A model generated the notes under the pieces. It had not been told where the DNA came from and made no database searches. It saw nothing but the letters and a program-made list of their open reading frames with translations. A stretch of 64,000 nt of DNA from a bacterium. GTDB lineage: Bacteria > Electryoneota > Electryoneia > Electryoneales > Electryoneaceae. A program made the translations under genes and the position numbers. This document shows, piece after piece, positions 26,561-50,450 of this stretch (the first letter of the stretch is position 1; each line of letters starts with the position of its first letter). The stretch is from positions 2,048,001 through 2,112,000 of the forward strand of contig OY769902.1 in the NCBI GenBank assembly GCA_963669175.1, read 5' to 3'.

Positions 26561-27072
26561 AGTAGGTAAAGAAGGTAAAAAAAGTAAAAAAAGTAAAGAA
26601 AGTGATTGAAACATAGGAAGTTGCTGATCCGGGACTTTGACAAGATTCTACCGGTTAAAAATATAGGTTCCTCACAAGAATTTGTGCATCCGGGCATTGT
26701 TGTGGCAGGTCTTGACGCGACATTCTGTCTTCGGCTTTCGTTATGTTTTCCTGAACTCACATTGATACTGAAACCGCTTCTCGCTCTGTTTTTGGCGCGT
26801 TGTGACCTGCCACCGGTATCTGCATTCTCGCTATCGTCATGTCACAACGTGATGCCTGATGTCGATCTATCATGCGAAAAAACACGCGTGAACTCGGACA
26901 GGTATCTTACGTCACGGAGAAAACAAGAAAAAAGCATCACGCCAAGACCTGACGAAACGTACTCGTCGATAGTATGTACAAATTCTTGTAAGCAGCCAAA
27001 ACAGATTGTCATTTGTCTGCCAGTAATGTATTTTAATAGGCACGTCCGCTTCCCCGCTGGACAGAATTGGAG

Positions 27073-34646: not shown

Positions 34647-35299
34647 GATTGAACCCCGGTCAATTCATCGGCTTTTTCTATCAGCTTGAGCAGGCGATGT
34701 TGCAGTTCCAGCCTGAGCGTTTCCATCTCGTCTTTATCCGCACGGTGTGGGACATGCAGGGGCGCACCGTAGACCATTACTCCTTTGCTGAAGGGAAGAG
34801 GTAACTGGAAACGATCCCAAGAGCCGAATTGTTTGTTCGGTTTGGAAGAGGCCAGCAGGGGAAGAATGGGAACATCAGCAAGTCGTGCAATGGCTATGGT
34901 GCCGATTTTGGGATCGTAAATCGGTCCTTTGGGACCATCGACCATGACTGCGCCGTTGTTGCCGCTTTTAATCGCAGACACCATGCCCTTCAGCGCCCTG
35001 CTAGCGCCTTTGTTGCTGCTGCCACGAACAGTGTCGTGTCCCAGGCGGGCAACCAGCCTTGTGACCATTTCGCCATCACGGCTGGAGGATACCAGTGCGG
35101 TGTACCCTTTTTTGCGCAAATGCCAGACAGGGAGGAACATGCGCCCATGGAACAGGGCCAGCAGGTGACCGGTGCCTTCCTTCTCCAGTTTCTCTTTGTG
35201 TTCCAGACCGTGATACTGCATGCGGACTGTCCTGGCGATCAGGCCTACCAGGAAAGGTCCGACTGTTTCACTGATCTTGTACAGTGTTTCATCTTTCAC
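34643..35299 (-). CDS. DUF374 / lysophospholipid acyltransferase-family protein
   Basis: FHGR, VSSSRDGE, VRGSS, DGPKGP, SWDRFQLPLPF; lies between lpxB and lpxK. Confidence 0.88.
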   Translation of the reverse strand: MKDETLYKISETVGPFLVGLIARTVRMQYHGLEHKEKLEKEGTGHLLALFHGRMFLPVWHLRKKGYTALVSSSRDGEMVTRLVARLGHDTVRGSSNKGASRALKGMVSAIKSGNNGAVMVDGPKGPIYDPKIGTIAIARLADVPILPLLASSKPNKQFGSWDRFQLPLPFSKGVMVYGAPLHVPHRADKDEMETLRLELQHRLLKLIEKADELTGVQS

Positions 35300-36441
35300 G
35301 GTTGTTCACTCCCGAACCGTGTGATAACCCAATCCGCCAGTCGTTCGGTTGCGCCGGGCTGGCCCAGACCATCAGCAACCTGTTTCAGGTTATGCTGGAC
35401 TTTCAGCCGTGTTTTGCCATCCCACATACGCAGCAAATCGTCGCAAAGCTGTTCCGGTGTCGCGCGTTCCTGAATGCGTTCCGGGACGATGCGTTTCCCC
35501 GCCAGCACATTGACCATCGCGATATGTCGTGTGCCTCGGATGAGTAACCTTCCCAGGAAATACGTTGTCGGGCTGGTAATATACATAACTGCGAAAGGCG
35601 TTCCGGACAGGGAGGCTTCCACTGTGCTGGTGCCACTTTTGATCAGGGCGACACGTGAGACTGACAACGCATTCGGGGCGCCGTTCTCGACCATATGAAC
35701 CCAGGGACGCCCGGCGATATAGGGATGAAGTGTATCCTGGTCAACCGTGTTGGCGCGAACCAGCAGGGCCAGGGTATCCGGTTTCTGCCGCCGCAAGCGC
35801 TCCATGGTTTCGATCATGGTTGGCAGGTGACGTTCAATCTCCTGGCTACGACTGCCGGGCATAAGCGTAACCGCTTCCTCGCCCGGTTGCATATTATACA
35901 ATGTTTGCAGCTCAGTCGGGGTCGTATCCGGTGCAGTTTCACCGACCATGGGATGACCGAAGAATACGGTTTCCAGGCCACGTCCACTGTACAACTCCTG
36001 TTCAAAGGGAAACAGGACAGCCATTGTGTCCAGGTGTTTGGCCATGAAGGAGATACGCCCCCGTCGCCATGCCCAGACTTGTGGACTGACATAGTACAAA
36101 ATGGAAATGGAGCGTCCGAAGCGTTTGCGTAGTTGTTTCAGCAGGTTCAAGTTAAAATCAGGGAAATCAACCAGGATAACGAGATTGGGTTTTCGATTTT
36201 CAATTTCAGCGATCAGACGGTTTCTGAGTTTGAGCAGGCGTGGGATATGACGGGCTACTTCAGCCAGTCCCATCAGGGCAGCTTCACTTATATCGGCGAC
36301 CTGCTCGCATCCGGCCGAACGCATCTGTTCACCAATCATCCCGGAATGGCGCCAGTCCGATTTACGTTGTTTAATCGCTTCGATCAACCGTGCTGCGTGA
36401 CGGTCGCCGCTACTTTCTCCTACTACCCAGAATAGTTCCAT
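35296..36441 (-). CDS. lpxB: Lipid-A-disaccharide synthase
   Basis: GESSGD, VDFPDFN, YVSPQVWAWR, PFE, GHP, PGSRSQE, SGT. Confidence 0.97.
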   Translation of the reverse strand: MELFWVVGESSGDRHAARLIEAIKQRKSDWRHSGMIGEQMRSAGCEQVADISEAALMGLAEVARHIPRLLKLRNRLIAEIENRKPNLVILVDFPDFNLNLLKQLRKRFGRSISILYYVSPQVWAWRRGRISFMAKHLDTMAVLFPFEQELYSGRGLETVFFGHPMVGETAPDTTPTELQTLYNMQPGEEAVTLMPGSRSQEIERHLPTMIETMERLRRQKPDTLALLVRANTVDQDTLHPYIAGRPWVHMVENGAPNALSVSRVALIKSGTSTVEASLSGTPFAVMYITSPTTYFLGRLLIRGTRHIAMVNVLAGKRIVPERIQERATPEQLCDDLLRMWDGKTRLKVQHNLKQVADGLGQPGATERLADWVITRFGSEQP

Positions 36442-36674
36442 GTTGCCAGGCCTTGTTGTGAATCATATACGTTACACCGATTCGAGTAGCGGTGCAACAT
36501 GGTTACCCGAGTCCCGCTCACTCGGGAATCAACAGTGCTCTCGTAAAAATAGATAAAATGTCCTTCCAGGTTTCATGTATATGTGATTTTTACTCATCTT
36601 GTTGCTGGAAATATCGGGTGCTATTCACATATTTATGTTGACTGATTGCCAGGCCAATTCTTCCGGGGGGAAGC

Positions 36675-37523
36675 ATGTCTGAGAAGTTCGTTATTCGCAG
36701 TATGTCCGAAACAGAAGCGGATATGGTTCGTGGGTGGGCGAACAGTGAAGGATGGAATCCGGGGTTATACGATACCGGCACCTTTTATTGGACTGATCCG
36801 CAAGGTTTCCTGATCGGGTTTCTGGGCGACAAACCTGTTGGCGCCATTTCGGCGGTGGCTTATGGTGACAGCTACGGCTTCATGGGATTCTATATCGTGT
36901 TACCAGAGTTTCGTGGTATGGGCTATGGCATGAAGCTGTGGAATGCTGCGATCAACTATTTGGACGAACGTGTCATCGGGCTGGATGGAGTTGTCGCACA
37001 GCAGGCTAACTACCGGAAATCAGGATTTGTCTTCGCGCATCGGAACCTGCGTTATGAAGGTGTTGCTGCAACAGGGAAGACGGGGATAGAGGGCATTGTA
37101 CCTTTATCAACAGTCAGCTTTCGCACCCTGGTGAACTATGATTATCGATTCTTTCCGGCAAAGCGTCCGATGTTCCTGAAGCATTGGATCGAACAGCCGG
37201 AATCGAAAGCCCTCGGCGTTGTTCGAAATGACGAGATGAAAGGGTTTGGCGTAATCCGCAAATGTGTCATCGGATGGAAGATCGGGCCGTTGTATGCCGA
37301 AACGCCACTCGATGCGCATAACCTCTTCCATGCCCTTGCCGCCCATCCGCATCCCGGAGAACAAATTGTGCTGGATGTGCCGGAAACCAATCCTGCCGCC
37401 AAAGAGTTGGCGGAGATACATGGGATGACCGTCAGTTTTGAAACCGCCCGCATGTATATAGGCGCGGAACCCAGGATTCCACACACGGAATGGTATGGGG
37501 TGACCAGTTTTGAATTGGGGTAG
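36675..37523 (+). CDS. GNAT family acetyltransferase (YitH-like tandem GNAT)
   Basis: EGWNPG, YIVLPEFRGMGYG, LDGVVAQQANYRKSGF, KIGPLYA, FETARMY. Confidence 0.9.
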   Translation: MSEKFVIRSMSETEADMVRGWANSEGWNPGLYDTGTFYWTDPQGFLIGFLGDKPVGAISAVAYGDSYGFMGFYIVLPEFRGMGYGMKLWNAAINYLDERVIGLDGVVAQQANYRKSGFVFAHRNLRYEGVAATGKTGIEGIVPLSTVSFRTLVNYDYRFFPAKRPMFLKHWIEQPESKALGVVRNDEMKGFGVIRKCVIGWKIGPLYAETPLDAHNLFHALAAHPHPGEQIVLDVPETNPAAKELAEIHGMTVSFETARMYIGAEPRIPHTEWYGVTSFELG

Positions 37524-37629
37524 CAGGCCACCCAAGCTCGCCAAAGCCCGACTTGCTCTTCATCCGCATCATGGACGACGACTCACAAATGTGGTCAGCA
37601 TTTTGAGTGTGTCAGCTACATTTCCGGCA

Positions 37630-37985
37630 AATCGGGCCATGCACGCTACCAGAAACGTACAGCCTCCCTACTAACCCGAATATTTCACCAATGCAATTTC
37701 AAATTTGGTATTTGATGGAATGGCCAGTACAAGAACCACGGCAGTGGTTCTCTGTATTAGCCCACCGTCCAGCGCCGTCTGTTTGGCGCTCACGGTGGGA
37801 ATAGGATGTACGCTACTTGCCAACCCCGGCAGCGGGTTGCCTGAATATTTCCACTGTATACTTTTGATATTTATCAGGTTACTCCTTCCGGAGTAAATAT
37901 ATGGTGCGCATTATCTCCCCGGGTAGCCGCCAAACTGACGGCGGCTGCCCGGGGCTAATACAGGTTGCCCCTGCCGGGGCGGTTG
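37630..37985. repeat. Intergenic mosaic of REP/MITE-like palindromes
   Basis: AGCCCACCGT...ACGGTGGG, CCCCGGGTAGCCGCC...GGCGGCTGCCCGGGG, GCCCCTGCCGGGGC. Confidence 0.55.
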
Positions 37986-38311
37986 CCGATTCTCAGCCTA
38001 TTTTGCCAGCGAAACAGGGAATAGACACGCAAAGGGATACCGGAGCAAACTGTCCCCTGAAAAATGCTGTATGAATCAGTTGTATTGTGTTGATATGAAC
38101 TGTGTTAAGATGAATATCCATGTCCCGTTCATGAAATATTCGGGCTAAACAGATTACTATTCAGCGCTACACAAATCACCACTTCTTCGAAAAGCGATTT
38201 CTTACCCATGCCAAACACTGCGAATCAAAAAACGGTACAACCTTTTTCGCAGAGTGTTATCTCAGCGAAAACCGGCTGTACCGTAGATATAAAAAGCAGT
38301 TAAACAGAGTG

Positions 38312-38761
38312 TTAATGCACAATCAATTCCGGATCACCGACCACTTTCCCGCCAGGGATGCCGTAGCCTGTCCACGTATCTGTATCAACATGATAGAACA
38401 TCTCAATGCCCGGCCCAACCAATGTATTCCGATTGGTTGACAAGGCCTGGATGACCTTGCCAGGTTCAAGCGTGAAATACCATTCTTCCCACAAATCATC
38501 GCGAAGGTGGATAAAATCGTACTGTTCGAGCTGATGGATTTTTTCCGGCCAGAAGCCCTGAGAATACTCGAATTCTTTGCAGGCTTTTACGATTTCCATC
38601 ATTTGTACCCGAGCTTCATGCCCACGCCGCAGTTCAACAACACCTTTATACCGTTTTGCGACAAACACACTTGCGACTGCCAAAACAAGAACGATCACAC
38701 CCATTGTGATCAAGCCATTACGCAGCCGTCGCCGGTCTCTCGCCTCTTTCCACTTTCCCAT
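38312..38761 (-). CDS. Pilin/pseudopilin-like membrane-anchored protein
   Basis: Basic leader, then G followed by a hydrophobic helix (LITMGVIVLVLAVASVFV), an amphipathic helix, and G.WP..I.QL. Confidence 0.5.
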   Translation of the reverse strand: MGKWKEARDRRRLRNGLITMGVIVLVLAVASVFVAKRYKGVVELRRGHEARVQMMEIVKACKEFEYSQGFWPEKIHQLEQYDFIHLRDDLWEEWYFTLEPGKVIQALSTNRNTLVGPGIEMFYHVDTDTWTGYGIPGGKVVGDPELIVH

Positions 38762-38781
38762 GATGAACCCGTCCTCGCTGC

Positions 38782-39786
38782 TTAACCTACCTGTGGCAGC
38801 ATCACGCTGCTCTTCAATTCCAGGTGTGTTATGTTGCCATCGGTTTTCACCAGCGCAACATCTCCACGGGGTACTGCTTTAACACGTCCAATGACTGCTG
38901 CCTTTTCACCGCCCTTAATCCTGCGCCATTTGGCAATAATACCCGGCGCTGCTTCAGGAGTGACAATGGCGGCCAGGATTCCGGCTGAAGGCACATATAC
39001 CGGATCGATCATTAAATCGGCACACAAATCAGCTACCGGTTGGCGTAATGGGATCAGTTTCTGCTGCAAATCCACCCCGACACCGGCATCACGGACCATA
39101 CGGATCACGGCGCCCGCCAGTCCGCCACGGCTGACATCGGTCATACGTCGAACGCCACCGCTTTCAAACGCAATCCGTGCAAGCTGGTGCAAAGAGCGCG
39201 CGTCACTGGCGAGGCCACTTCCGGATAGTCCGTTACGGTTGGCAATGACCGCTGCGCCATGTTCGGCAATGGGCGCGTTCAGAATAATGACATCACCCTC
39301 ACGCACCAGCAGGCCATGCAGGTTATGCTCTTCCGCCAGGACACCGAAAGCCGTTACAGTAATAGCGATACGGTCGATTTCACCTTTTTCCACAACACGG
39401 GTATCCCCGGCAACAACTTCTACAGTCGCTTCGGCAGCGGCTTTGGCTGCCGATGCAACCACACGTTCCAGGAGATCGCCGGACAAGCCTTCTTCCAGGA
39501 TGAAAGCGATTGAGATCAAACGTGGTTGAGCGCCCACGACAGCCAGATTGTTTACCGCGCGCATCACGGCGAGACGCCCGATGTCACCGCCTGGAAAAAC
39601 AACCGGACGGACAACACAGGACTGTGTTGTGACAGCCAGACGACCTTCTTTGGGCATGGGCAGGACTGAAGCGTCCATCATCCGGTGCAGAGGAACAGAA
39701 CGAAAGCGGGACAGGAAAACATCTTCAATCAATTTCTTCGCCGGGCCGCCGCCTTCACCATGTGCCTGCTTGATCTCAATATTCAT
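38782..39786 (-). CDS. HypE-like (AIR synthase superfamily) protein lacking the C-terminal PRIC cysteine
   Basis: AHG.GG, FPGGDIGRLAV, FILEEGL, GDTRVV, SRGG; ends in LPQVG. Start likely 39786. Confidence 0.85.
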   Translation of the reverse strand: MNIEIKQAHGEGGGPAKKLIEDVFLSRFRSVPLHRMMDASVLPMPKEGRLAVTTQSCVVRPVVFPGGDIGRLAVMRAVNNLAVVGAQPRLISIAFILEEGLSGDLLERVVASAAKAAAEATVEVVAGDTRVVEKGEIDRIAITVTAFGVLAEEHNLHGLLVREGDVIILNAPIAEHGAAVIANRNGLSGSGLASDARSLHQLARIAFESGGVRRMTDVSRGGLAGAVIRMVRDAGVGVDLQQKLIPLRQPVADLCADLMIDPVYVPSAGILAAIVTPEAAPGIIAKWRRIKGGEKAAVIGRVKAVPRGDVALVKTDGNITHLELKSSVMLPQVG

Positions 39787-40063
39787 GGCGGGAAGGTACT
39801 CTCTTTTTTCCGGGTCTGCCAGTCTTGATGAGATTTTATAGGTGTACACACTGGTGGGGAGCGTTTCTGCCGAGTATGAAAGAAGATGCCATTGAGTATG
39901 GAATTCTGGTATAACTTGTGATTTTTTCAGCGCAATAGCTATCCGTTGAGATCCGGGATTCCTGCCTGTAATTTGTATCTATCTATTGCCGTAACCAGTT
40001 GGTTTGAATACCTTATTATAAAGCACGGGTTCAGAGATTTTACTGCAAGACGGGAGATAGAAC

Positions 40064-42142
40064 ATGAGAATTGCAAAGACGTTTGTAGCGATAGCCGTGG
40101 TTATGGCGTTCATTCTGCCTGCCACGCTGACTGCCTATACCACGCCGGGCACAAGTGTGTACTGGACAGGCGATGACCTGGTGGAAAATTCGAACGGTGC
40201 AGTCACCTGGGATGAAGAGTCCGGACGATACCTGTTCACTGAAGAAGTAACGATTGCAGAGACCGATACAATCGTGATTGAGGAAGACTTGCAGTGTACC
40301 CACACGTCCAATCCTGCGATCACGATCGAGGGTTATTTTGTGATGGGGATACTGGATTCAGCCCAGGTCGATTCACTCGAGTTTATCGGCCCCGATGAGG
40401 AACTGGCAAGCGGCTTCCGTATTGAGGAAACCGGCTACCTGGAGCTGAACCGGGTGATCGCGGATGGCGGTGGTTATGATGGGGAAATCCCGGGCCATTC
40501 CATGGTGCATGTTGTGGATGGTTCCGCCACTGTGACCGGATGCCGATTCACCAACTGGGACCGTTATGTCATGTCCCTGTCGGGTGGGTTTACCAGTGTT
40601 GAGAACTGCATGTTCCACGATAATCACCAATGGACAATCAACATCAACATGAGTGCAGAAGTTGAAATCTCCGGATGTACCCTGATAGACAACAACCTGG
40701 AAGCCAGCAGCGCGAAAAACCCGATTTCCATTGGAACACAAGGATATAACACAGTTAGCATCGAAAATTGTTATATCAGTGGTGAAGAGGGCAACCTGCA
40801 TGGCGGCGTGTCGGTCTGGAACTACCTCGGTTCCGGTGCGGATGTGGAAATCTCCAATGTGACCGTTGAAGGCGCGTCCTTCGGAGTGATTGCGCAGGGA
40901 TCAGGGGTGGAAGTACTGATCACGGATTGCCAGTTTATTGACAACAACATTCATCCCAACCCGATGCAGGGCGGTTCCGGGATAACGGTACAGCAGTTTG
41001 CGACTGTGACAGGCGCGCGCAACATCATCACCGGTAACCACTGGGGTATTACCGTTCTCACCAATGCTACAGTCATGCTTGGCGATGTTGACGCGGAAGA
41101 CCCGGACGAACAGGGCTACAACCAGATTTACGACAACGGCAACGGTGGAGAAGTGTACAACTTCTACAACAACACGTCCGGGGACATGCTGGCTCAGAAC
41201 AACTGGTGGGGGAGCATGGATTCGACCACAGTTGAAAATGGAATCTTCCATGACCCTGATAACGGCAGCCTGGGACTGGTAACCTATATGCCGCTGTGGG
41301 ATCCGGACGCGAATCTGCCGCCTGTTATTACTGAATCGGAACCGTGGTTCCATACCTTCAACTTCCACCCGGTTACGGATCAGGTTTTCACCATTACCGG
41401 AAATGATCCGGATGGCATTGACAGCACGCTGTTTTACCACTGGTTGGTCAATGGTGAATTGATGGGGACAACTTCAAGCTATACCCATACCTTTACCGAG
41501 CTGGGCGAGTTTGAGATCATTGGCGCTTTGATTGATGCGGAAGGTGACAGCGCTTACGTAACCTGGAACGCGACCGGAATCAACGCTGTTCCGGAATTCA
41601 CGCAATGGGCGCCCGAAGGTGAAGAATACACGACTTCGCAAGGAGTTCAGACACTTTTCCGGGTTCGTGCTTCAGATGAAGACGACGATTCGCTTAGCTT
41701 CAGTTTCTATCTGGATGATGAACTGGTCAGCGAAGATACGACGTATTCCTATGTAGGCGCAGATGATATCGGGGAACAGAGCCTGCGATGTATCGTGACC
41801 GATCCGTTTGGCGCTGCGGATACACTCAACTGGGTTATTTACATTGCCATCGGCGTTGATGCTTCCGAATCCGGTCTGCCCGAAACCTTCAACGTGGCAG
41901 CCTATCCCAATCCGTTCAACTCGTCACTTCATGTGCAAATGGCACTGCCTAACGCGGGATATGTGCATGCGGTGGTGTATGATATCACCGGCAGGCAGGT
42001 TGCGACGCTGGCCGATGGCGTGTTTGCAGCAGGATATCGTGAACTGAGCTGGAATGCGAATGGGCTGGCGTCGGGTGTGTATATCGTGCGGATGGAAGCA
42101 CAAGGCGAAACATGCATGATGAAGGTTATGCTTATTAAGTAA
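40064..42142 (+). CDS. Secreted right-handed beta-helix + Ig/PKD-like protein with T9SS-type CTD
   Basis: Signal peptide, parallel beta-helix repeats (I..C.F.DN), AQNNWWG, two Ig-like modules, AYPNPFNS...KVMLIK. Confidence 0.88.
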   Translation: MRIAKTFVAIAVVMAFILPATLTAYTTPGTSVYWTGDDLVENSNGAVTWDEESGRYLFTEEVTIAETDTIVIEEDLQCTHTSNPAITIEGYFVMGILDSAQVDSLEFIGPDEELASGFRIEETGYLELNRVIADGGGYDGEIPGHSMVHVVDGSATVTGCRFTNWDRYVMSLSGGFTSVENCMFHDNHQWTININMSAEVEISGCTLIDNNLEASSAKNPISIGTQGYNTVSIENCYISGEEGNLHGGVSVWNYLGSGADVEISNVTVEGASFGVIAQGSGVEVLITDCQFIDNNIHPNPMQGGSGITVQQFATVTGARNIITGNHWGITVLTNATVMLGDVDAEDPDEQGYNQIYDNGNGGEVYNFYNNTSGDMLAQNNWWGSMDSTTVENGIFHDPDNGSLGLVTYMPLWDPDANLPPVITESEPWFHTFNFHPVTDQVFTITGNDPDGIDSTLFYHWLVNGELMGTTSSYTHTFTELGEFEIIGALIDAEGDSAYVTWNATGINAVPEFTQWAPEGEEYTTSQGVQTLFRVRASDEDDDSLSFSFYLDDELVSEDTTYSYVGADDIGEQSLRCIVTDPFGAADTLNWVIYIAIGVDASESGLPETFNVAAYPNPFNSSLHVQMALPNAGYVHAVVYDITGRQVATLADGVFAAGYRELSWNANGLASGVYIVRMEAQGETCMMKVMLIK

Positions 42143-42309
42143 AAAAGGTAAAAAAGGTAAAGAAGATAAAGAAGGTATAGAAGGTATAGAAGGTATAGAA
42201 GCTGATATCCTTCATACATTGTTTACCTCATTCTTGTTGATTGGATTATACCCGACTGCCTGGCAGTCGGGTTTCTTCTTTCGGTCATCCCTATTCTGTC
42301 ATCCCCGGC
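41903..42309 (+). repeat. Direct repeat copy 1 (CTD coding sequence + 3' tail)
   Basis: 41903-42142 is identical to 45605-45844. After a 9-mer tract of different length, 42198-42309 is identical to 45875-45986. Confidence 0.95.
42251..42281 (+). terminator. Intrinsic terminator (duplicated at 45928-45958)
   Basis: CCCGACTGCCTGGCAGTCGGG followed by TTTCTTCTTT. Confidence 0.8.
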
Positions 42310-43394
42310 CTCCAACGGGGATCGCATGGATGAACGTGAACCGAACGCATGTCATCCCCGGCTCGAACGGGGATCGCATGGATGAACGTGAACCGAACGC
42401 ATGTCATCCCCGGCCCCGAACGGGGATCTCGAGGGTTACAGTGATCAATCTGGTTGTTTGTTTTACTACTGAAGGACTGGTTCTCTCTACTCAATTATAA
42501 TAGACCACCGCCGGACAGCCGCCTTCGCTTCGCTACAGACCGCTTCAAGCCGGCGGGGCCAAGTAAAACTCTTTCTCACTCATGTCATCCCCGTTCTATC
42601 ACCGCATCTATGTCATCCCCGGCTCGAACGGGGATCTCGAGGGTTACCATGTGTATCCTGGTCGTTAGTTTACCTACTGAAGGACAGATTCTCTCTACCC
42701 AATTATAATAGACCACCGCCGGACAGCCGCCTTCGCTTCGCTACAGACCGCTTCAAGCCGGCGGGGCCAAGTAAAACTCTTTCTCACTCATGTCATCCCC
42801 GTTCTATCACCGCATCTATGTCATCCCCGGCTCGAACGGGGATCTCGCGGATTACAGTGATCAATCTAGTTGTTTGTTTTACTACTGAAGGACTGATTCT
42901 TTTTAGTCAATTATAATAGACCACCGCCGGACAGCCGCCTTCGCTTCGCTACGGCCTGCTTCAAGCCGGCGGGGCCAAGTAAAACTCTTTCTCACTCATG
43001 TCATCCCCGTTCTATCACCGCATCTATGTCATCCCCGGCTCGAACGGGGATCTCGCGGATTACAGTGATCAATCTAGTTGTTTGTTTTACTACTGAAGGA
43101 CTGATTCTTTTTAGTCAATTATAATAGACCACCGCCGGACAGCCGCCTTCGCTTCGCTACGGCCTGCTTCAAGCCGGCGGGGCCAAGTAAAACTCTTTCT
43201 CACTCATGTCATCCCCGTTCTATCACCGCATCTATGTCATCCCCGGCTCGAACGGGGATCTCGAGGGTTACCATGTGTATCCTGGTCGTTAGTTTACCTA
43301 CTGAAGGACAGATTCTCTCTACCCAATTATAATAGACCACCGCCGGACAGCCGCCTTCGCTTCGCTACAGACCGCTTCAAGCCGGCGGGGCCAA
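42298..43394. repeat. Palindromic tandem array: 2 x ~52 bp, then ~5 x 208 bp
   Basis: GTCATCCCCGGC..GAACGGGGATC at 42298, 42351, 42403, 42612, 42820, 43028, 43236. TAGACCACCGCC hairpin at 42501, 42709, 42917, 43125, 43333. Confidence 0.97.
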
Positions 43395-43561
43395 TTGTGC
43401 AAACTCACCTTCTGGGAAACAAAGTATACATTTAAACACATGTACTATTGATTTCAGTTTATCCTGTTCCTACGTTAATCATGGCCACCAGAAACAAACC
43501 TTTTGTACCAGCATTCCCGCCTGAAGAATACTCTGTCCAGCAACCTGTTGGAAGGTTTCGT

Positions 43562-45844
43562 ATGGCGAACGCTATTCTGAAGACACGATTCAATACCTCT
43601 TTCCTCGTTTCGATTTGTATCACCGTTGTTGTCTCCGTGCTGCCGTGGTCGGTTCGAGCAGACCTGCGATATCTGGGCCCGGAAAACGCGAATGTGACCG
43701 AGATTGCTTGCAGTCCTGTAGATTCCAATCTTGTTTTTCTCGGCACAAAATATGGTGGGATATACCGCAGCCTGGATGCCGGGCAAACCTGGGAATCAAT
43801 GAATGAAACGTATCCCGCACGTTTTGACAGCACCACCGAATGGGATGATGCCTGGGGAGGAGTTTTTATTCCAATCACCGTAATCAGGACGCATCCCTCG
43901 GATGCGTCGATTGTCTATGTCGGTGGTGGGGATGATGGCAACAGTTTCCTTGCAATGAGCGCCGATACCGGACGGACCTGGCAGACCATTGGCGAAGAGA
44001 TCCCGCCCTGCGAATGTATTACTGACCTTTGGATTCATCCCGAACATCCGGACACCATGTTCACCTGTACACAGTATCCCGGTGGGCTATTCAAGAGTAT
44101 CAACGGTGGCATGGACTGGCAACTGGATACAACAATGGTTCATAATGACCATTACATCTTCGAATGTATAAGCAGCAATGAAACAGAACCGGATGTGCTT
44201 TATGTGGGATTCGGAAGTGATGGTTGTGTACCGTATCCACATTGGGGCGTTTTTAGAACATTGGACTGTGGACAATCCTGGGAACTGGTTCAGGATTTTT
44301 ATGATACTTCGCATCGTGTTAGAAATGTTATTGTTGATCGAAATGATAGCCACCATGCATGGATCGTTTATTGGGGATTTGAATATTATGGAATACCTTT
44401 GGAAACCTTTGATGCAGGATCAACATGGGCATACGGGCAGTGGGGAATAGGTCAAATCAACAATGCATATATTAACTCTTTTAACCGCATCACACTCTAT
44501 TCGGAAGAAGGTCTGCTAATCAGTGACGATCTTGGAGAAAATTGGACTGGGATAGGAACCGACCTGCCGTGGGTTTTTGGACAATCTGCTCTTTGTACCA
44601 GCTGGCATAACCCGCAGCGATTGTATAGCGGTTCATACTTGGGACCGTTTATCAGCGTCGATGGAGGTGTATCAAGCGTCAGGTCTGTATCGGGACTGGA
44701 AAACGCTCGTATCAGCAGTGTGTCGCGTAGCGAGAGTGCGATAACCGTCGCCGGCGGCCAAAGCGGAATCTGGATTTCGCGAGCGGATTCTGCCTGGACG
44801 CATTGTTATACCAATGATATGATCAATCGTGTGCTGGTCGATAGTCAAAATCCGGATTTCATTTACGCGGCGACAAATTACAGTTTCCTGGTAAGCCAGG
44901 ATAGGGGAATGACATGGAATGCAAGCACCATTAATGGGCTAATCGGAATGACTTTCCTGTACGAATTGCCAATAGGAAATGACTCTACGGTTTTATTATG
45001 TGGTGGCGCACATAATGGAGGATACCTGGCAAGAAGTACGAATAACGGCTTCTCATGGTCTATGGTTAATGTCGGGGTGATAGGCCTGCCTACTCACATC
45101 GTCTCCGATCCAAACCATGAGGACCTGATTTATCTATCGCATCATGGCATTTCAAGGAGCTATGATAACGGAGAAACATGGGAGAGGTGTCGGGCATCCA
45201 CTCGGGTGTATGGTATGGATATCGACAGGAATAGCAAGCTCTACTTCTCCACAATACAAGGTTTGTTTTATACTCGTAACGAGGGACACAACTTCTACAA
45301 TGTTCCGATAGACCCAACCCTGCCAATCGAGCGCATCCTGGATATCGAGATTGTCGGTAGCGAAGAGGAGGATCTGATCTATATAGCAACGAATGACGGT
45401 ATCTATTACAGCGAAGATCGTTGTGCGTCATGGATCTATGTTGAGGGGACCCGTGAAATTAAACCCAACTCAATAGAATGGGACAGACAAAATGGTTGTT
45501 TCCTGATCGCTTCCAATAATCACGGTGTATGGGAGTTGGACCTGCGTACCAACCATGTGAATATTGACAGGAAACCAGCTTTACCAACGGCCAGCCTTGT
45601 CGGTTATCCCAATCCGTTCAACTCGTCACTTCATGTGCAAATGGCACTGCCTAACGCGGGATATGTGCATGCGGTGGTGTATGATATCACCGGCAGGCAG
45701 GTTGCGACGCTGGCCGATGGCGTGTTTGCAGCAGGATATCGTGAACTGAGCTGGAATGCGAATGGGCTGGCGTCGGGTGTGTATATCGTGCGGATGGAAG
45801 CACAAGGCGAAACATGCATGATGAAGGTTATGCTTATTAAGTAA
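43562..45844 (+). CDS. Secreted BNR/Asp-box beta-propeller protein with T9SS-type CTD identical to that of the upstream gene
   Basis: Signal peptide ending VRA-DL, SxDxGxTW repeats; the last 79 aa are identical to the 40064 protein. Start likely 43562. Confidence 0.88.
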   Translation: MANAILKTRFNTSFLVSICITVVVSVLPWSVRADLRYLGPENANVTEIACSPVDSNLVFLGTKYGGIYRSLDAGQTWESMNETYPARFDSTTEWDDAWGGVFIPITVIRTHPSDASIVYVGGGDDGNSFLAMSADTGRTWQTIGEEIPPCECITDLWIHPEHPDTMFTCTQYPGGLFKSINGGMDWQLDTTMVHNDHYIFECISSNETEPDVLYVGFGSDGCVPYPHWGVFRTLDCGQSWELVQDFYDTSHRVRNVIVDRNDSHHAWIVYWGFEYYGIPLETFDAGSTWAYGQWGIGQINNAYINSFNRITLYSEEGLLISDDLGENWTGIGTDLPWVFGQSALCTSWHNPQRLYSGSYLGPFISVDGGVSSVRSVSGLENARISSVSRSESAITVAGGQSGIWISRADSAWTHCYTNDMINRVLVDSQNPDFIYAATNYSFLVSQDRGMTWNASTINGLIGMTFLYELPIGNDSTVLLCGGAHNGGYLARSTNNGFSWSMVNVGVIGLPTHIVSDPNHEDLIYLSHHGISRSYDNGETWERCRASTRVYGMDIDRNSKLYFSTIQGLFYTRNEGHNFYNVPIDPTLPIERILDIEIVGSEEEDLIYIATNDGIYYSEDRCASWIYVEGTREIKPNSIEWDRQNGCFLIASNNHGVWELDLRTNHVNIDRKPALPTASLVGYPNPFNSSLHVQMALPNAGYVHAVVYDITGRQVATLADGVFAAGYRELSWNANGLASGVYIVRMEAQGETCMMKVMLIK

Positions 45845-46180
45845 AAAAAGGTAAAAAAAGGTAAAGAAGGTAAAGAAGCTGATATCCTTCATACATTGTT
45901 TACCTCATTCTTGTTGATTGGATTATACCCGACTGCCTGGCAGTCGGGTTTCTTCTTTCGGTCATCCCTATTCTGTCATCCCCGGCTCGAACGGGGATCT
46001 CGAGGGTTACCATGTGTATCCTGGTCGTTAGTTTACCTACTGAAGGACAAATTCTTTTTACTCAATTATAATAGACCACCGCCGGACAGCCGCCTTCGCT
46101 TCGCTACAGACCGCTTCAAGCCGGCGGGGCCAAGTAAAACTCTATCTCACGCATGTCATCCCCGGCCCCGAACGGGGATC
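45605..46180 (+). repeat. Direct repeat copy 2 (CTD + tail + one array unit)
   Basis: See 41903-42309. A single array unit follows at 45975-46180. Confidence 0.95.
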
Positions 46181-46248
46181 GCGAGATTCGTGAAAGCAGG
46201 TTTCAGCGCTATTACATATTCCAAATACTTTTCCCGATACTTATACCA

Positions 46249-46284
46249 AAAACATCCCCCGGAAACACTGGTTTCCGGGGGATG
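46249..46284. terminator. Hairpin between convergent genes
   Basis: CATCCCCCGGAAAC-ACTG-GTTTCCGGGGGATG with a T-run on the minus strand. Confidence 0.75.
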
Positions 46285-46310
46285 ATAGTGTGTAGCGGGT
46301 AGCTACAATA

Positions 46311-46362
46311 TAGCGTGCAAAATCAACCAAGCATGCAAAATCAACCAAGCATGCAAAACCAA
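46311..46362. repeat. 18-bp tandem repeat (about three copies)
   Basis: GCATGCAAAATCAACCAA. Confidence 0.85.
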
Positions 46363-46363
46363 T

Positions 46364-49300
46364 CTAGCGTACCAAAGTCACCTTGTGTACGGCGTTCATC
46401 TTGCCGGGTACATACGCCTGGATGAAGTACAGGCCGCTGGACAGGTTGGTCGCGTTAAAGGTGAAGGAGTGATATCCCTGCGCAAAGCGTCCCTGTGCCA
46501 GCACACTGACCTGCTCACCGAGGATGTTGAATACACGCACGTCCAGGTCAGCCGCGTTGGGCAGGCCGACAACCGCAGTCATGGTCGGGTTGAATGGATT
46601 CGGATAGGCACGTGCGATACTGTATTCCGTGGGAACCTGTGAGAAGAGGTTCTCTTCAACGCCGACACCGTCCCATTCCACAGATGCGGTGTCAGAATTG
46701 GCGGACATACCCTCATCAAACGAGGCAACCACCCAATATTCGAAGGTTCCGGCTGCGATGCCAGTCAGGTCATCGGTGTATACTAGATTTTCCGTTTCCG
46801 TGAGGACTTCGCCATTACGGTAGAGGATGAATTCGATGAACTCGTCGGTTTCAGCGTCTGCGAAGGCCCAGGAAAGCTCGACCATCGGGCTGCCATTTTC
46901 ACGAGTAGCTGCCATTTCAGTTGGCGTTTCCAGAATGGGAGCATGGAAGTCTTCCGCCAGGGATGGGATAATCTGGACAGCATCACGGTACAGACTGATG
47001 GGGCCATAGAATACGATCCAGTCTTCCGCGGCAAAACCACTCAGATCCAGCCCGGCATCCTCGTTGATGTAAACCGTAACCGCTCCGGAACCGTCATCAA
47101 TGGACAAAGTGTAACTTTCCGTTCCCGGATCACCCTGCAATTCACCCATCACCATCGTCCAGGCGCCTTCCATTGCGGAAAGTGCTGCGATTTCAGCTGT
47201 TGTGCCGGTAATGGGCGCGGGAAGGTTGTTGCCTGAACTGAGCATCTCGACGGTGAAGTTCACGATTTCCGTTATGCCGTTGTACTCGGCAACCTGCCCG
47301 GTTACCTGAACTTCATCGCCACGGACCAGGTTGTTTTCCGGGTTCAGCGGTTCGGAATCATACAGCATGACACCGTAGCCGGACGCATCCTGGATGTAAC
47401 AGTCGAAACGGTCCGTGTGAATGGAGTTGGTCTGCAACGTGACAATACCGGTAATGGTTACCCAGGTATCAGTCTCAACCGTAGTCTGGACATTTTCGAT
47501 GGTATAGGTGCCAATTGGTGCAAGGGCAAATTCATAGGTTTCAGGGACATTTGCTTGGAATGTGATGTCGTTCAAGGCGTGAGGAACGTAGCCTTCAAGA
47601 GTGGCTGTCAGGTCGTATGTGCCGGGGAGAAAGTCCCTGAAGTAGTATGTTCCTGCTGCATCAGTTGTTGTGGTCAACGCATCGCCTTCATTCGGGGTCA
47701 AGGTTACAGTCACCCCTTCGAGCGGATCGGAATTTGTCGCAGTGACAGTACCTCTAAGGTTGGCAATATTCGGAACAAGAGTGATCTCTTGCGCTACAAC
47801 ATCACCAGCCGCCAAAGTGAAGTTCTCAACGGTTCCGGTAACGTACCCATCAAGTATTGCTTCCAGGTTATATGAGCTGGGCGCAAGCATTGCGAATTCG
47901 AAGTTGCCGGACGCATCCGTTGTCGTGTTTAACGCATCGCCTGTTTCCGGAGTCAAGATCAGTGAAACTCCCTCGAGCGGATTGTCATCCGGATCAGTAA
48001 CAGTACCGCTGAGGTTAGCGACACTCGGTGAAAGGGTGATGTTCTGGACAGCAAAATCGTTTGCTTCAAAAGAAAGGTCTTCTACTGTATTGGCGAAGTA
48101 CCCCTCAAGCGTGGCTTCCAGATCGTACGTGCCGGGTTCAAGTTCTGCAAATACGTAGTGCCCGGATGCGTCGGAAGTCGCTGTGATGGCATCACCTTCA
48201 TCAGGCGTTAATGTCAGGGTAGCGCCCTCGAGCGGATTGGAATTCGCATCTGTGACCGTACCTCGCAGGTTGGCTGTGGTCCGGTCCAGGTAAACACGTG
48301 CCGAGACCTGGCCTCTGCCAATGGGGTTGTTGTCATCAGGCCCGTAATAGAACTGAACACCCACGGTACCATTTTCATCCTCGAATCCGATAGAGACGTT
48401 CATGTCTTCATCTTCATCTGCGGCAATCGTGTTGTAGTTGGCTGTTACATCCAATGTGGTGAAGTCGAAGATGGCCTGGAACGTATTTGCGGCGTTCAAC
48501 TGATCATAGTAGACTACTTCATCCCATGTGACAACGAGATCGCCATCCACCACTTCAGCATAGATTGTGCCGCCATCGCTGGGATCCAGGTCCGTACCCA
48601 GCACCGAAATGTTCGCGTTCGGTTCTGTCGGGTAGGGCATCACGAAAGCATAGGGGGTTCCATCTATGTCGCCATCGGTGAAACAGAACCGTCCATTGGA
48701 AATCACATAAACAGAACTGTATTCTGTACCGTACCAGGTGAAGTTGCCCAGACCATAGTCGGCAAATGTCAGCAATTCGGAATCGTCATCATCGATGTTC
48801 AGTGCAGTCGCATTTTCAGACACTTCCTGCCAACTGTAGTCAACCTGTTCAAAGTAAATGCGTTTGTCATCCGGCCATGCTTCAAGCCCGAGATTCTGAG
48901 TGTTTTCACCTACAGAAAGCTCGATCTCTTCCGTGATCAAAAGGGTGTATTCAAAACGATTAACCTCAATCGTTCCAGATATGCCGGAATAGAGATCACG
49001 GAAACTGAAGTTGCCATCCCTGTCTGTGGTTGTCGTCATACCCTGGAATGTAACTGTAGCCCCTTCCAATGCGGCGCCGGTATGATCATCTGTAATCGTG
49101 CCGGAAAGAGAAGCATCCGGAACCGGCGGATCGATTTGGATCGCCAGTTCAGGGAAGGGATAGTTCGGTACGTCGTTTTGGAAAAGAATGGACAAGCCGC
49201 AAGATCTGTCTGAATTCTGGGTGCCGATAGAAGCGAGTGTAATATCCATATGGTTTTCAAAGGCGGCGTACTGCAGCAGAATCGTGCCATCCTCGAATAG

Positions 49301-49930
49301 GATTATCTGCACAGTGAAATAGCCATCCGTTTCGTACTCACAAAAGTCGATAGCGCTGATCACCAGGGCTGTCTGCTCGTTGATCGTGGTGGTCTCATAA
49401 TAGAACGTACCGCCATCGCTCGCATTCAGATCGTCCCAGAAATAGGAGATCATCGCGCCGCCGTATGCAGATGGCATTTGATAACCGGTTGCGCCAGGTG
49501 CAATACCGTCAAAGCTGATGTTACCATTTGGTTGGAACCAGAACTCATCGAATATGTCACCGTAATACGGGAAATTAAAGCCGATATCAAACGGCCCTTG
49601 CTGACCCTCATCGGTTACACCTGTGATCTGTGTACCGGTCTCACTGATATCGATCCAGTTGTAGGTCGGTCCACCTTCTTCCTGGCTGTCGATATAAGTG
49701 TAGCCACCGTCATCCGGACCGCCCTGTTCATCGAGTTCGTTCGATGCGGCTTCCGGCAGCATGTACAGCCGGTGGAATTCTGTTGCGAGTTGTTTTTCCT
49801 GCTGGGAGAGTGTTACACCATTAAACTGTTTGTGGTAGGCGGCTTTCATGTCCTCGTAACTTGCGCTATAGGCGAAGGATACCAAGATGAAAGCGGCGAA
49901 CAGAGAAATCCTCACTGCTCTTTGCATCAT
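46364..49930 (-). CDS. Large acidic secreted protein: carboxypeptidase-regulatory-like repeats, OB-fold-like and FN3-like domains, T9SS-type CTD
   Basis: Signal peptide from MMQRAV (49930), four L.GT(V/I)T....LEG.T..L repeats, GDEVQVTGQVAEYNGITEI, AYPNPFNP...KVTLVR. Confidence 0.88.
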   Translation of the reverse strand: MMQRAVRISLFAAFILVSFAYSASYEDMKAAYHKQFNGVTLSQQEKQLATEFHRLYMLPEAASNELDEQGGPDDGGYTYIDSQEEGGPTYNWIDISETGTQITGVTDEGQQGPFDIGFNFPYYGDIFDEFWFQPNGNISFDGIAPGATGYQMPSAYGGAMISYFWDDLNASDGGTFYYETTTINEQTALVISAIDFCEYETDGYFTVQIILFEDGTILLQYAAFENHMDITLASIGTQNSDRSCGLSILFQNDVPNYPFPELAIQIDPPVPDASLSGTITDDHTGAALEGATVTFQGMTTTTDRDGNFSFRDLYSGISGTIEVNRFEYTLLITEEIELSVGENTQNLGLEAWPDDKRIYFEQVDYSWQEVSENATALNIDDDDSELLTFADYGLGNFTWYGTEYSSVYVISNGRFCFTDGDIDGTPYAFVMPYPTEPNANISVLGTDLDPSDGGTIYAEVVDGDLVVTWDEVVYYDQLNAANTFQAIFDFTTLDVTANYNTIAADEDEDMNVSIGFEDENGTVGVQFYYGPDDNNPIGRGQVSARVYLDRTTANLRGTVTDANSNPLEGATLTLTPDEGDAITATSDASGHYVFAELEPGTYDLEATLEGYFANTVEDLSFEANDFAVQNITLSPSVANLSGTVTDPDDNPLEGVSLILTPETGDALNTTTDASGNFEFAMLAPSSYNLEAILDGYVTGTVENFTLAAGDVVAQEITLVPNIANLRGTVTATNSDPLEGVTVTLTPNEGDALTTTTDAAGTYYFRDFLPGTYDLTATLEGYVPHALNDITFQANVPETYEFALAPIGTYTIENVQTTVETDTWVTITGIVTLQTNSIHTDRFDCYIQDASGYGVMLYDSEPLNPENNLVRGDEVQVTGQVAEYNGITEIVNFTVEMLSSGNNLPAPITGTTAEIAALSAMEGAWTMVMGELQGDPGTESYTLSIDDGSGAVTVYINEDAGLDLSGFAAEDWIVFYGPISLYRDAVQIIPSLAEDFHAPILETPTEMAATRENGSPMVELSWAFADAETDEFIEFILYRNGEVLTETENLVYTDDLTGIAAGTFEYWVVASFDEGMSANSDTASVEWDGVGVEENLFSQVPTEYSIARAYPNPFNPTMTAVVGLPNAADLDVRVFNILGEQVSVLAQGRFAQGYHSFTFNATNLSSGLYFIQAYVPGKMNAVHKVTLVR

Positions 49931-50450
49931 GTGCTGCTCCTCTCGTCGTGACAACCGTTCTGTGCACACATAAGTATGTATGCGTTCAAATCAAAGAAAA
50001 CCGTGCTTACTATCCTGCTTCGAAATGCGGCAGTAGTCTCCTTTCCCTGTTTGGGTGTGCGACGACAGAATGTTGCGATATAGTCGCAGGATATAGCATA
50101 TCACCAAATCGCAACAAGCTCCTGGTCAAGAGAGTTGAACTACTCTGAACAATCCTTGAAATACTGGCAGGATCAGTAATTCGGCAGATCCGATAACTTC
50201 TGTTTGTCGAATTAAGATGTCAGAGTGATATATAAACTACCATAGCAGTACTTGGTAGTCAATTTTAAAGGTACATAAATAATCTTTTTTCAATGTGTAT
50301 CGTATCCCAGGAGATTGTTAAGCCAACACTGGGAAGAGTTGCATATCTTCCTTCTGATAGCTATGTTACAAATGGCCACCAGCAAGAATCATTGTAAGCA
50401 TCCCCGCCAGAAGGGCTCTGTTCTCTATCTACCTGCTCACAGGCGCTGCG

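Follow-up and report, generated by a model that had tools for sequence, protein, structure and literature searches.

Identical DNA for a C-terminal export domain in two neighbouring type IX secretion cargo genes of an Electryoneaceae bacterium: probable local gene conversion within a wider pattern of concerted evolution

In a 64,000-nt stretch of the genome of a bacterium from the family Electryoneaceae (contig OY769902.1 of assembly GCA_963669175.1, positions 2,048,001 to 2,112,000 of the forward strand; hereafter the window), two neighbouring cargo genes of the type IX secretion system (T9SS), here called gene A and gene B, end in C-terminal sorting domains (CTDs) that are encoded by identical DNA. 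The two genes lie on the same strand at a spacing of 3.7 kb, and the proteins to which the domain is attached are unrelated. This arrangement probably arose by gene conversion, a local and non-reciprocal homologous recombination with A as donor and B as recipient, as one recent case of a concerted evolution of CTDs that runs through the lineage. CTDs of type A are generic export tags, which are removed once the protein has been secreted. To our knowledge, the origin of T9SS cargo repertoires, in which hundreds of genes carry one kind of C-terminal tag, has been little studied.

Pairwise alignment of the two CTD-coding segments (Table 1) gave 240 identical positions out of 240, third codon positions included, from the TAT codon for the tyrosine of the YPNPFN motif through the stop codon. 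A repeat search of the window likewise returned a direct repeat of 253 nt at 99% (41903-42155 and 45605-45857). The 5' border is abrupt: the bases directly preceding TAT read GCAGCC in gene A and GTCGGT in gene B, and the 90 nt upstream of the motif show an ungapped identity of 28%, which is the random level. In the genome, a single contig of 5,447,365 bp, the 240-nt sequence is found in these two places only, the next match being 74.6% over 67 nt, and each of the two cargo parts occurs once. Since the median identity among 54,285 pairs of CTD-coding ends is 32%, the agreement between A and B lies far beyond chance. The initial annotation of this DNA had pointed out both the identity and its start at the tyrosine codon, and both observations are borne out.

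The cargo parts have nothing detectable in common. BLASTP between them returned no similarity at E<1e-3, and their Pfam matches differ: Beta_helix (43.8 bits) and PKD_3 (28.6 bits) in gene A, as against Sortilin-Vps10 (76.8 bits) and BNR (38.9 bits) in gene B, in agreement with the earlier reading of a beta-helix and Ig-like protein next to a BNR propeller. Both proteins carry Por_Secre_tail (PF18962; curated cut-off 27 bits) at the extreme C-terminus, with 38.1 bits over residues 614-688 of 692 in A and 36.0 bits over residues 720-794 of 798 in B, which places both among type A CTD proteins. The open reading frame (ORF) of gene B is open from 43448, with a likely start at Met39 (43562); the recorded protein (P0003) is the 760-aa form. 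The translations of both genes show hydrophobic N-termini, MRIAKTFVAIAVVMAFILPATLTA in A and ...FLVSICITVVVSVLPWSVRA from Met39 in B. The convergent neighbour downstream of B bears a CTD of its own that is only 51.6% identical to the shared one at the DNA level, and has not been homogenised.

Identical repeats of this kind invite the suspicion of an artefact, in which assembly or polishing made two distinct CTDs identical or created one chimeric junction; polishing can homogenise repeats of such size, and contigs built from short reads are interrupted here. Contigs of three public runs cover the stretch, and two of these runs (X1 and X2) stem from one sample that is probably the source of the assembly. 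In X1, the CTD forms a single 244-nt piece without variant letters, whose depth of 50.2 is near the sum of the depths of the flanking A-cargo and B-cargo contigs (30.3 and 26.7), as expected of two identical copies, and this argues against a chimeric assembly. Both cargo contigs enter the shared CTD by 30 nt at full depth; farther downstream, depth is single (29.3) in the A-type microsatellite piece and again double (50) in the piece of the shared untranslated region (UTR). The contigs of X1 and X2 thereby support both junctions, which the initial annotation had proposed to verify, and no contig spans the repeat. An artefact is accordingly extremely unlikely. Three contig joints (42642>45969, 43395>46057 and 45986>42362) were considered as loop-out forms and rejected, as their sides are only 27-34 nt long and lie inside repeats resembling repetitive extragenic palindromic (REP) elements; the last of them is explained by path choice through a popped bubble in the assembly graph. 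No credible loop-out or circular joint was thus seen, although contigs cannot reveal one. The third run (X3), from another sample, was considered as a source of strain variation and not used: it yields A pieces without differences and no cover of the B cargo, and its depth is low and patchy.

As the initial annotation had noted, the shared tail runs past the stop codon through the terminator into the palindromic array. It extends about 345 nt beyond the stop and comprises a microsatellite, a terminator hairpin, a REP-like hairpin and one 208-nt unit. The 9-nt microsatellite stands directly 3' of both stop codons and is the sole difference between the copies in the first ~400 nt. It is followed in both tails by ~115 identical nt that include the hairpin ACCCGACTGCCTGGCAGTCGGGT (42250-42272 and 45927-45949); the shared stretch behind A matches 45879-46020 except at a few bases. 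Behind gene A only, there follow two 52-nt tandem units that match this locus alone in the genome (2 high-scoring segment pairs, 1 locus), and then an array of 208-nt units. Gene B is followed by a single 208-nt unit, whose identity is 96.7% with unit 2 of the A array, 97.4% with unit 5, 88-89% with the remaining units and at most 81% with dispersed copies elsewhere; therefore, it was derived specifically from the A array. The tail of B is accordingly a condensed copy of the tail of A, and the whole copied tract measures ~585 nt and ends near 46200. REP-like units stand to either side of gene B, one of b-type at 43242-43394 and the other at 45981-46164.

The interval between A and B contains repeat DNA with short chance ORFs only. 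Each 208-nt unit is composed of two dispersed REP-like elements, X and Y, of which the genome holds copies at ~82 loci (X) and as 97 hairpins (Y, ~97). Each unit also carries a promoter-like AGGACA-17-TATAAT on the plus strand, and the last of these sites (43305-43333) lies ~230 nt upstream of the likely start of gene B. No Rfam family was matched over 41800-46500 at E up to 0.1. The tails resemble clusters of REP elements, bacterial interspersed mosaic elements (BIMEs) and REPINs in being built of dispersed short hairpin repeats in a genome with Y1-transposase-like genes (10 matches, the nearest Y1_Tnp match ~150 kb away). They differ from such clusters in that the units form a 208-nt tandem array, of which one unit was copied along with coding DNA; no transposase is shown to have mobilised them.

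Which of the two genes owns the CTD can be read from relatives. Gene A has full-length orthologs, at 64% identity in a genome of the same genus (G001) and at 34-46% in several other genomes and metagenomes, where the 46% match spans residues 7-415 only. According to precomputed annotation, PF18962 is present on all but one (P0125) of the eight closest of these orthologs. The shared CTD aligns with that of the G001 ortholog at 110.1 bits (58.5% identity over 82 aa), whereas neither any of the other 328 CTDs of the genome nor the CTDs of the other A and B homologs tested give more than 76.3 bits; three other CTDs in the window are 32-36% identical to it. The linker preceding the motif in A, LPETFNVAA, is also conserved with the ortholog (LPDQFGIAA). 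As the closest CTD by far is that of the A ortholog, the domain is native to A, and B is the recipient. The initial annotation had supposed that a new cargo was placed on a constant secretion module; the bit scores (110 versus at most 76) reverse this picture, in that the tail was copied onto B. Its more general claim, that a recent recombination event put one CTD module on unrelated cargoes with the breakpoint at a conserved motif, is upheld. The contrast between A and B CTDs that are 100% identical as DNA and an ortholog CTD at 58.5% protein identity is the signature of concerted evolution. The GC content at third codon positions (GC3) was tried as a pointer to the donor and rejected, because CTDs in general average a GC3 of 0.58. 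A locus search with gene A in genome contigs found no relative; among the relatives, only G004 keeps the purM-like gene next to A, unlike the 5-kb contig of G001, which stops 383 nt past the stop codon of its A ortholog.

The A/B pair is not an isolated case. An iterated profile search identified 330 CTD ORFs among the 9192 stop-to-stop ORFs of the genome, in agreement with a first look that gave 340 PF18962 candidates, 150 of which were scored and all of these above the cut-off. A recognisable [YWF..]PNPFN-type motif is present in 301 of the 330, and the 29 ORFs that lack it were left out of motif-anchored counts; the motif reads YPNPFN in 211 of the 301, and [YWFH]PNPFN is found in 282 of the 330. 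With CTD identity measured over the 192 nt after the motif, 31 of 45,150 pairs are at least 85% identical, and 20 of these 31 are same-strand near pairs (no more than 10 kb apart). The 85% threshold is reached by 18 of 77 near pairs with homologous cargo, by 11 of 2818 far pairs with homologous cargo (several of them whole-gene duplicates), by 2 of 139 near pairs with unrelated cargo and by 0 of 42,116 far pairs with unrelated cargo (near versus far for unrelated cargo, Fisher p = 1.1e-5). High CTD identity is thus commoner both among near and among homologous pairs. The second near pair with unrelated cargo, at genome positions 4078841 and 4081352, has 95% CTD identity.

In seventeen near pairs, which make up 9 clusters with 23 genes, the CTDs are at least 85% identical as DNA, yet the cargo proteins are at most 50% identical or have no similarity. 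In an extreme example, the CTDs are 99.5% identical as DNA, with a third-codon-position identity of 1.0, and the cargo parts 22% identical, a combination that selection at the protein level cannot produce. The tracts are as sharp as at the A/B locus, where third-position identity is 1.0 in the tract and overall identity upstream is 28%: across the 17 near pairs, the high-identity run 5' of the motif measures at most 3 nt in 7 and at most 36 nt in 16, with a maximum of 39 nt, and identity ends within 10 nt after the stop codon in 11. The self-alignment of CTDs that the initial annotation had called for therefore shows that near-identical CTDs with different cargo and with breakpoints at the motif do recur. 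The recurring cases are almost all adjacent genes on one strand, mostly old paralogs, with CTD identities graded from 85 to 100%, as ordinary ectopic gene conversion would leave them. For the cluster at 14.8-25 kb of the genome, the relatives in G001 are only 28-31% identical, without one-to-one orthologs.

The same pattern is found in another genus of the family. In genome G013, 20 regions were picked solely for close-lying matches among 150 listed PF18962 candidates out of 421. These regions hold 80 CTD ORFs and 155 within-region pairs, of which 35 reach a CTD identity of at least 80% (19 of them at least 85%). In 29 of these 35, the 90 nt upstream are less than 60% identical, and several have negligible cargo similarity. 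CTD-limited homogenisation of neighbours is thus a property of the lineage and not of one locus. In nine small loci of relatives, a sample too small for the purpose, no CTD pair exceeded 60%.

From these observations we infer the following course of events. Genes A and B are both ordinary, complete T9SS cargo genes. Approximately 585 nt of the 3' end of A, with the CTD, stop codon, microsatellite, terminator and one unit of the REP array, would then have been copied over the 3' end of B, either by gene conversion or by an unequal exchange at the motif followed by a deletion between repeat units, which would yield the same product. The 5' border would have been set at the motif block and the 3' border within the REP-like array that flanks B on both sides. 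At the 5' side, the zone from -30 to +18 nt encodes the conserved block L(-10) P(-9) .. F(-6). L(-4) ... [YWF]PNPFN, in which the linker L at -10 and P at -9 are found in 257 of 301 CTDs. Linker and motif together are the first island of DNA similarity that any two CTD genes share, which would explain why the border falls there. At the 3' side, the REP-like unit just upstream of B would supply the homology. With no substitution in 240 coding nt and with changes in the tail confined to the microsatellite, the event was very recent, and the A/B locus would be the most recent instance of a concerted evolution that is limited to the CTD in clustered cargo genes. Because the CTD is generic and is removed on secretion, its replacement should be nearly neutral, which would explain why such tracts persist and remain confined to the tag.

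Several findings weigh against conversion from A to B. As X1 and X2 probably come from the assembly's own sample, their contigs are not independent support. The A/B tract runs ~345 nt into non-coding DNA, unlike 11 of the 17 near pairs, in which identity stops at the stop codon, and an 18-nt motif is short for an exchange of the RecA type. The X repeat is found within 600 nt downstream of only 14 of 330 CTD genes, and pre-existing 3' homology at B is therefore not a given. Unrelated neighbours as a class do not have CTDs more similar than those of distant pairs (Mann-Whitney p = 0.36), so that events between unrelated cargo genes are rare. None of the 323 matches of the B cargo among 5.8 billion proteins (E up to 1e-3) exceeds 28% identity, and there is thus no ortholog with a native CTD that could prove a replacement. 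Finally, the LP of the B linker stands at -8/-7 rather than at -10/-9 as in 201 of 301 CTDs, an offset unique among the 301 that could point to a non-canonical junction.

The long non-coding tract, the rarity of the X repeat and the unique linker spacing keep alive an alternative in which B or its ancestor, newly arrived or formerly not a T9SS gene, had no CTD at all, and a duplicated 3' module of A was fused to it in frame, so that a new cargo was recruited to the T9SS. This is the core of the idea in the initial annotation, without dedicated machinery, and we hold it to be doubtful. It would account for an orphan-like B cargo, of which no relative was found in G001; for a GC3 of B (0.48) below that of A (0.60) and of the shared CTD (0.57); and for a copied tract that takes in terminator and repeat DNA, as the grafting of a whole 3' module would predict. 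In addition, a six-frame search downstream of A and of B (for B, 45845-46400) found no remnant of an older CTD, and PF18962 is annotated on only 13 of the 119 listed non-self homologs of the B cargo. However, homology-guided exchange yields just such an in-frame junction at the motif's first base, as seen in the other 16 near pairs, and the GC3 of B, at the 33rd percentile of cargo genes, does not look foreign. The nearest B-like proteins in genomes of the same family (771-781 aa) align through the CTD, which suggests that B probably bore a CTD of its own before the event. B has also kept an LP..L-like linker in front of the motif, a weak hint of an older CTD edge given that [LIVM]P has a background of 6% per 7-aa window. 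A broader form of the capture idea holds that CTD, terminator and repeat tail make up a portable 3' module that neighbours graft onto one another at the LP..F.L..YPNPFN block, and that this is a main route by which the lineage has built, and continues to reshape, its secretome of 330 T9SS cargo genes. This seems to us improbable. If it were true, grafting would also reach genes without a CTD or with a CTD of another class, neighbours might be selected for one shared 'address', and B would be a freshly recruited or re-addressed cargo.

Local gene conversion also has to be weighed against the proposal of the initial annotation that the locus is a candidate cargo-swapping system. In a dedicated or programmed system, the identical CTDs would serve as recombination sites at which the 3.7-kb interval is exchanged, excised or amplified under regulation, for instance by a recombinase that integrates cassettes or by switching akin to phase variation. 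Direct repeats longer than 400 nt and 3.7 kb apart would be good substrates for deletion and duplication, CTD sharing with breakpoints at one motif does recur, and the genome contains hairpin repeats together with the 10 Y1-transposase-like genes. On the other hand, Pfam searches of six ORFs of the window (35296-49969), which encode LpxB, a GNAT acetyltransferase, an AIR-synthase-related protein and CTD proteins, found no recombinase; tyrosine and serine recombinases were not searched for genome-wide. Both A and B are complete, with their own starts and signal-peptide-like N-termini, and promoterless cassettes are absent. In the other clusters, CTD identity spans a gradient of 85 to 99%, as befits old, decaying events rather than exact switching, and the sole contig joints at the locus have sides of less than 35 nt within REP-like repeats. 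Such a system is therefore very unlikely. The more specific suggestion of a Campbell-type integration of a cassette through CTD homology is not supported either, since a single crossover alone would not give two identical CTDs, and no recombinase lies nearby.

Comparison with known systems helps to delimit what is new. In Helicobacter pylori, babA, babB and other hop genes undergo concerted evolution of the 3' ends of outer-membrane protein genes, in which conversion homogenises the segment for the export or anchor module and the N-terminal functional part stays divergent. The hop genes differ in being paralogs throughout and in using another secretion route; here, the A/B pair and the pair at 4078841/4081352 have cargo parts without detectable homology. 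Polymorphic toxins such as Rhs and CdiA recombine orphan modules at a conserved junction motif between their constant and variable parts, and share with the present case a conserved coding motif that is both the constant/variable border and the point of recombination. As the initial annotation noted, the polarity is mirrored, the C-terminus being constant here; furthermore, there are no promoterless orphan cassettes, modules or immunity genes, and both genes are full length. Nothing suggests a role of the A/B locus in competition.

The closest published case among T9SS cargo genes is that of Porphyromonas gingivalis, in which hagA, rgpA and kgp have identical adhesin-coding repeats and a conserved CTD in common; Dashper et al. 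(2017; PMC5266723) explain this sharing by rearrangement of domains and by gene conversion through homologous recombination. Large functional adhesin domains in dispersed genes are concerned there, whereas the segment shared here is the export tag exactly from its first motif together with a non-coding tail, between neighbours of unrelated cargo and in a pattern that extends over 9 clusters. Full-text literature searches returned no paper on CTD-limited gene conversion among T9SS cargo genes. The mechanism resembles the Porphyromonas and Helicobacter cases, and segmental gene conversion as a process is already known. New with respect to these cases are a tract that is exactly the export tag, partners that may carry unrelated cargo, and a pattern that is clustered and genome-wide.

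These findings show that the CTD-coding segment evolves as a unit of its own, which is repeatedly overwritten between neighbours with borders at the first conserved motif, at times even between genes with unrelated cargo. CTD sequence is consequently a poor marker of cargo ancestry. Identical CTDs also amount to direct repeats, through which intervening genes can be deleted or duplicated, and they break short-read assemblies. Free exchange of CTDs in nature fits the notion of interchangeable export tags; no new molecular machine is implied.

Table 1. Features of the A/B locus and contig pieces of run X1 (positions in the window)
Feature	Position	Strand	Remarks
Gene A	40064-42142	+	692 aa; ORF and translation
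Gene A, cargo part	40064..41902	+	hydrophobic signal-peptide-like N-terminus, right-handed beta-helix, PKD-like domain, linker LPETFNVAA
Shared CTD, copy 1 (likely donor)	41903..42142	+	T9SS type A sorting domain, YPNPFN to stop codon
9-nt microsatellite behind A	42143..42201	+	AAAAAGGTA / AAGAAGGTA type, ~7 copies; repeat family D3
Shared 3' untranslated stretch	42202..42345	+	terminator hairpin 42250-42272 and first REP-like hairpin (ATCCCCG..CGGGGAT)
Two 52-nt tandem units	42304..42407	+	behind gene A only; repeat family D5
Tandem array of 208-nt units	42409..43395	+	~4.75 units; family D1; two dispersed REP-like elements per unit
Gene B, cargo part	43562..45604	+	signal-peptide-like hydrophobic N-terminus, then BNR/Asp-box sortilin-Vps10-type beta-propeller
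Shared CTD, copy 2 (likely recipient)	45605..45844	+	240/240 identical to copy 1
9-nt microsatellite behind B	45845-45878	+	4 copies; copy number differs from A tail
B tail	45845..46200	+	4-copy microsatellite, terminator hairpin 45927-45949, REP-like hairpin, one 208-nt unit (45981-46164), further hairpin
Terminator hairpin of convergent neighbour	46253..46284	-	in unique DNA starting at ~46200, where the copied tail ends
Convergent neighbour	46364..49969	-	1201 aa; CarboxypepD_reg repeats (Pfam); own, different CTD
X1, A-cargo contig	ends at 41932		depth 30.3
X1, B-cargo contig	ends at 45634		depth 26.7
X1, CTD	41903-42146		one 244-nt piece, depth 50.2, no variant letters
X1, A-type microsatellite piece	42117-42226		depth 29.3 (single)
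X1, shared UTR piece	42197-42309		depth 50 (double)

Further CTD genes of the genome deserve mention. A 781-aa CTD gene in the window (27067-29412, plus strand) has a CTD that is 96% identical to that of a gene 870 kb away (stop at genome position 2946991); their DNA is also similar beyond the stop codon and their cargo parts are 43% identical, making this a long-range CTD-limited case. Two other pairs are duplicates of whole genes, namely a 1049-aa CTD gene (stops at ~4030089 and ~1369971), identical at 100% over at least 1103 nt at a distance of 2.66 Mb, and a 782-aa CTD gene (stops at ~1943968 and ~283642), inverted and 99.7% identical over a span of at least 1103 nt at a distance of 1.66 Mb. 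In a minus-strand pair with reverse-complement ends at 4241202 and 4250062 (plus-strand positions near 1206163 and 1197303), the 500 nt after the stop are at least 97% identical and the CTDs ~70-88%, which reverses the usual CTD pattern. With regard to the secretion apparatus, a profile search of the genome for GldM_1st (PF12081) found no match, and components of the T9SS motor may be divergent; the translocon is represented by a SprA_N match of 149.3 bits in a 2272-aa frame. A CTD match at 4826832-4827062 on the minus strand ends an open frame of 11,594 aa, which is thus a giant putative T9SS cargo.

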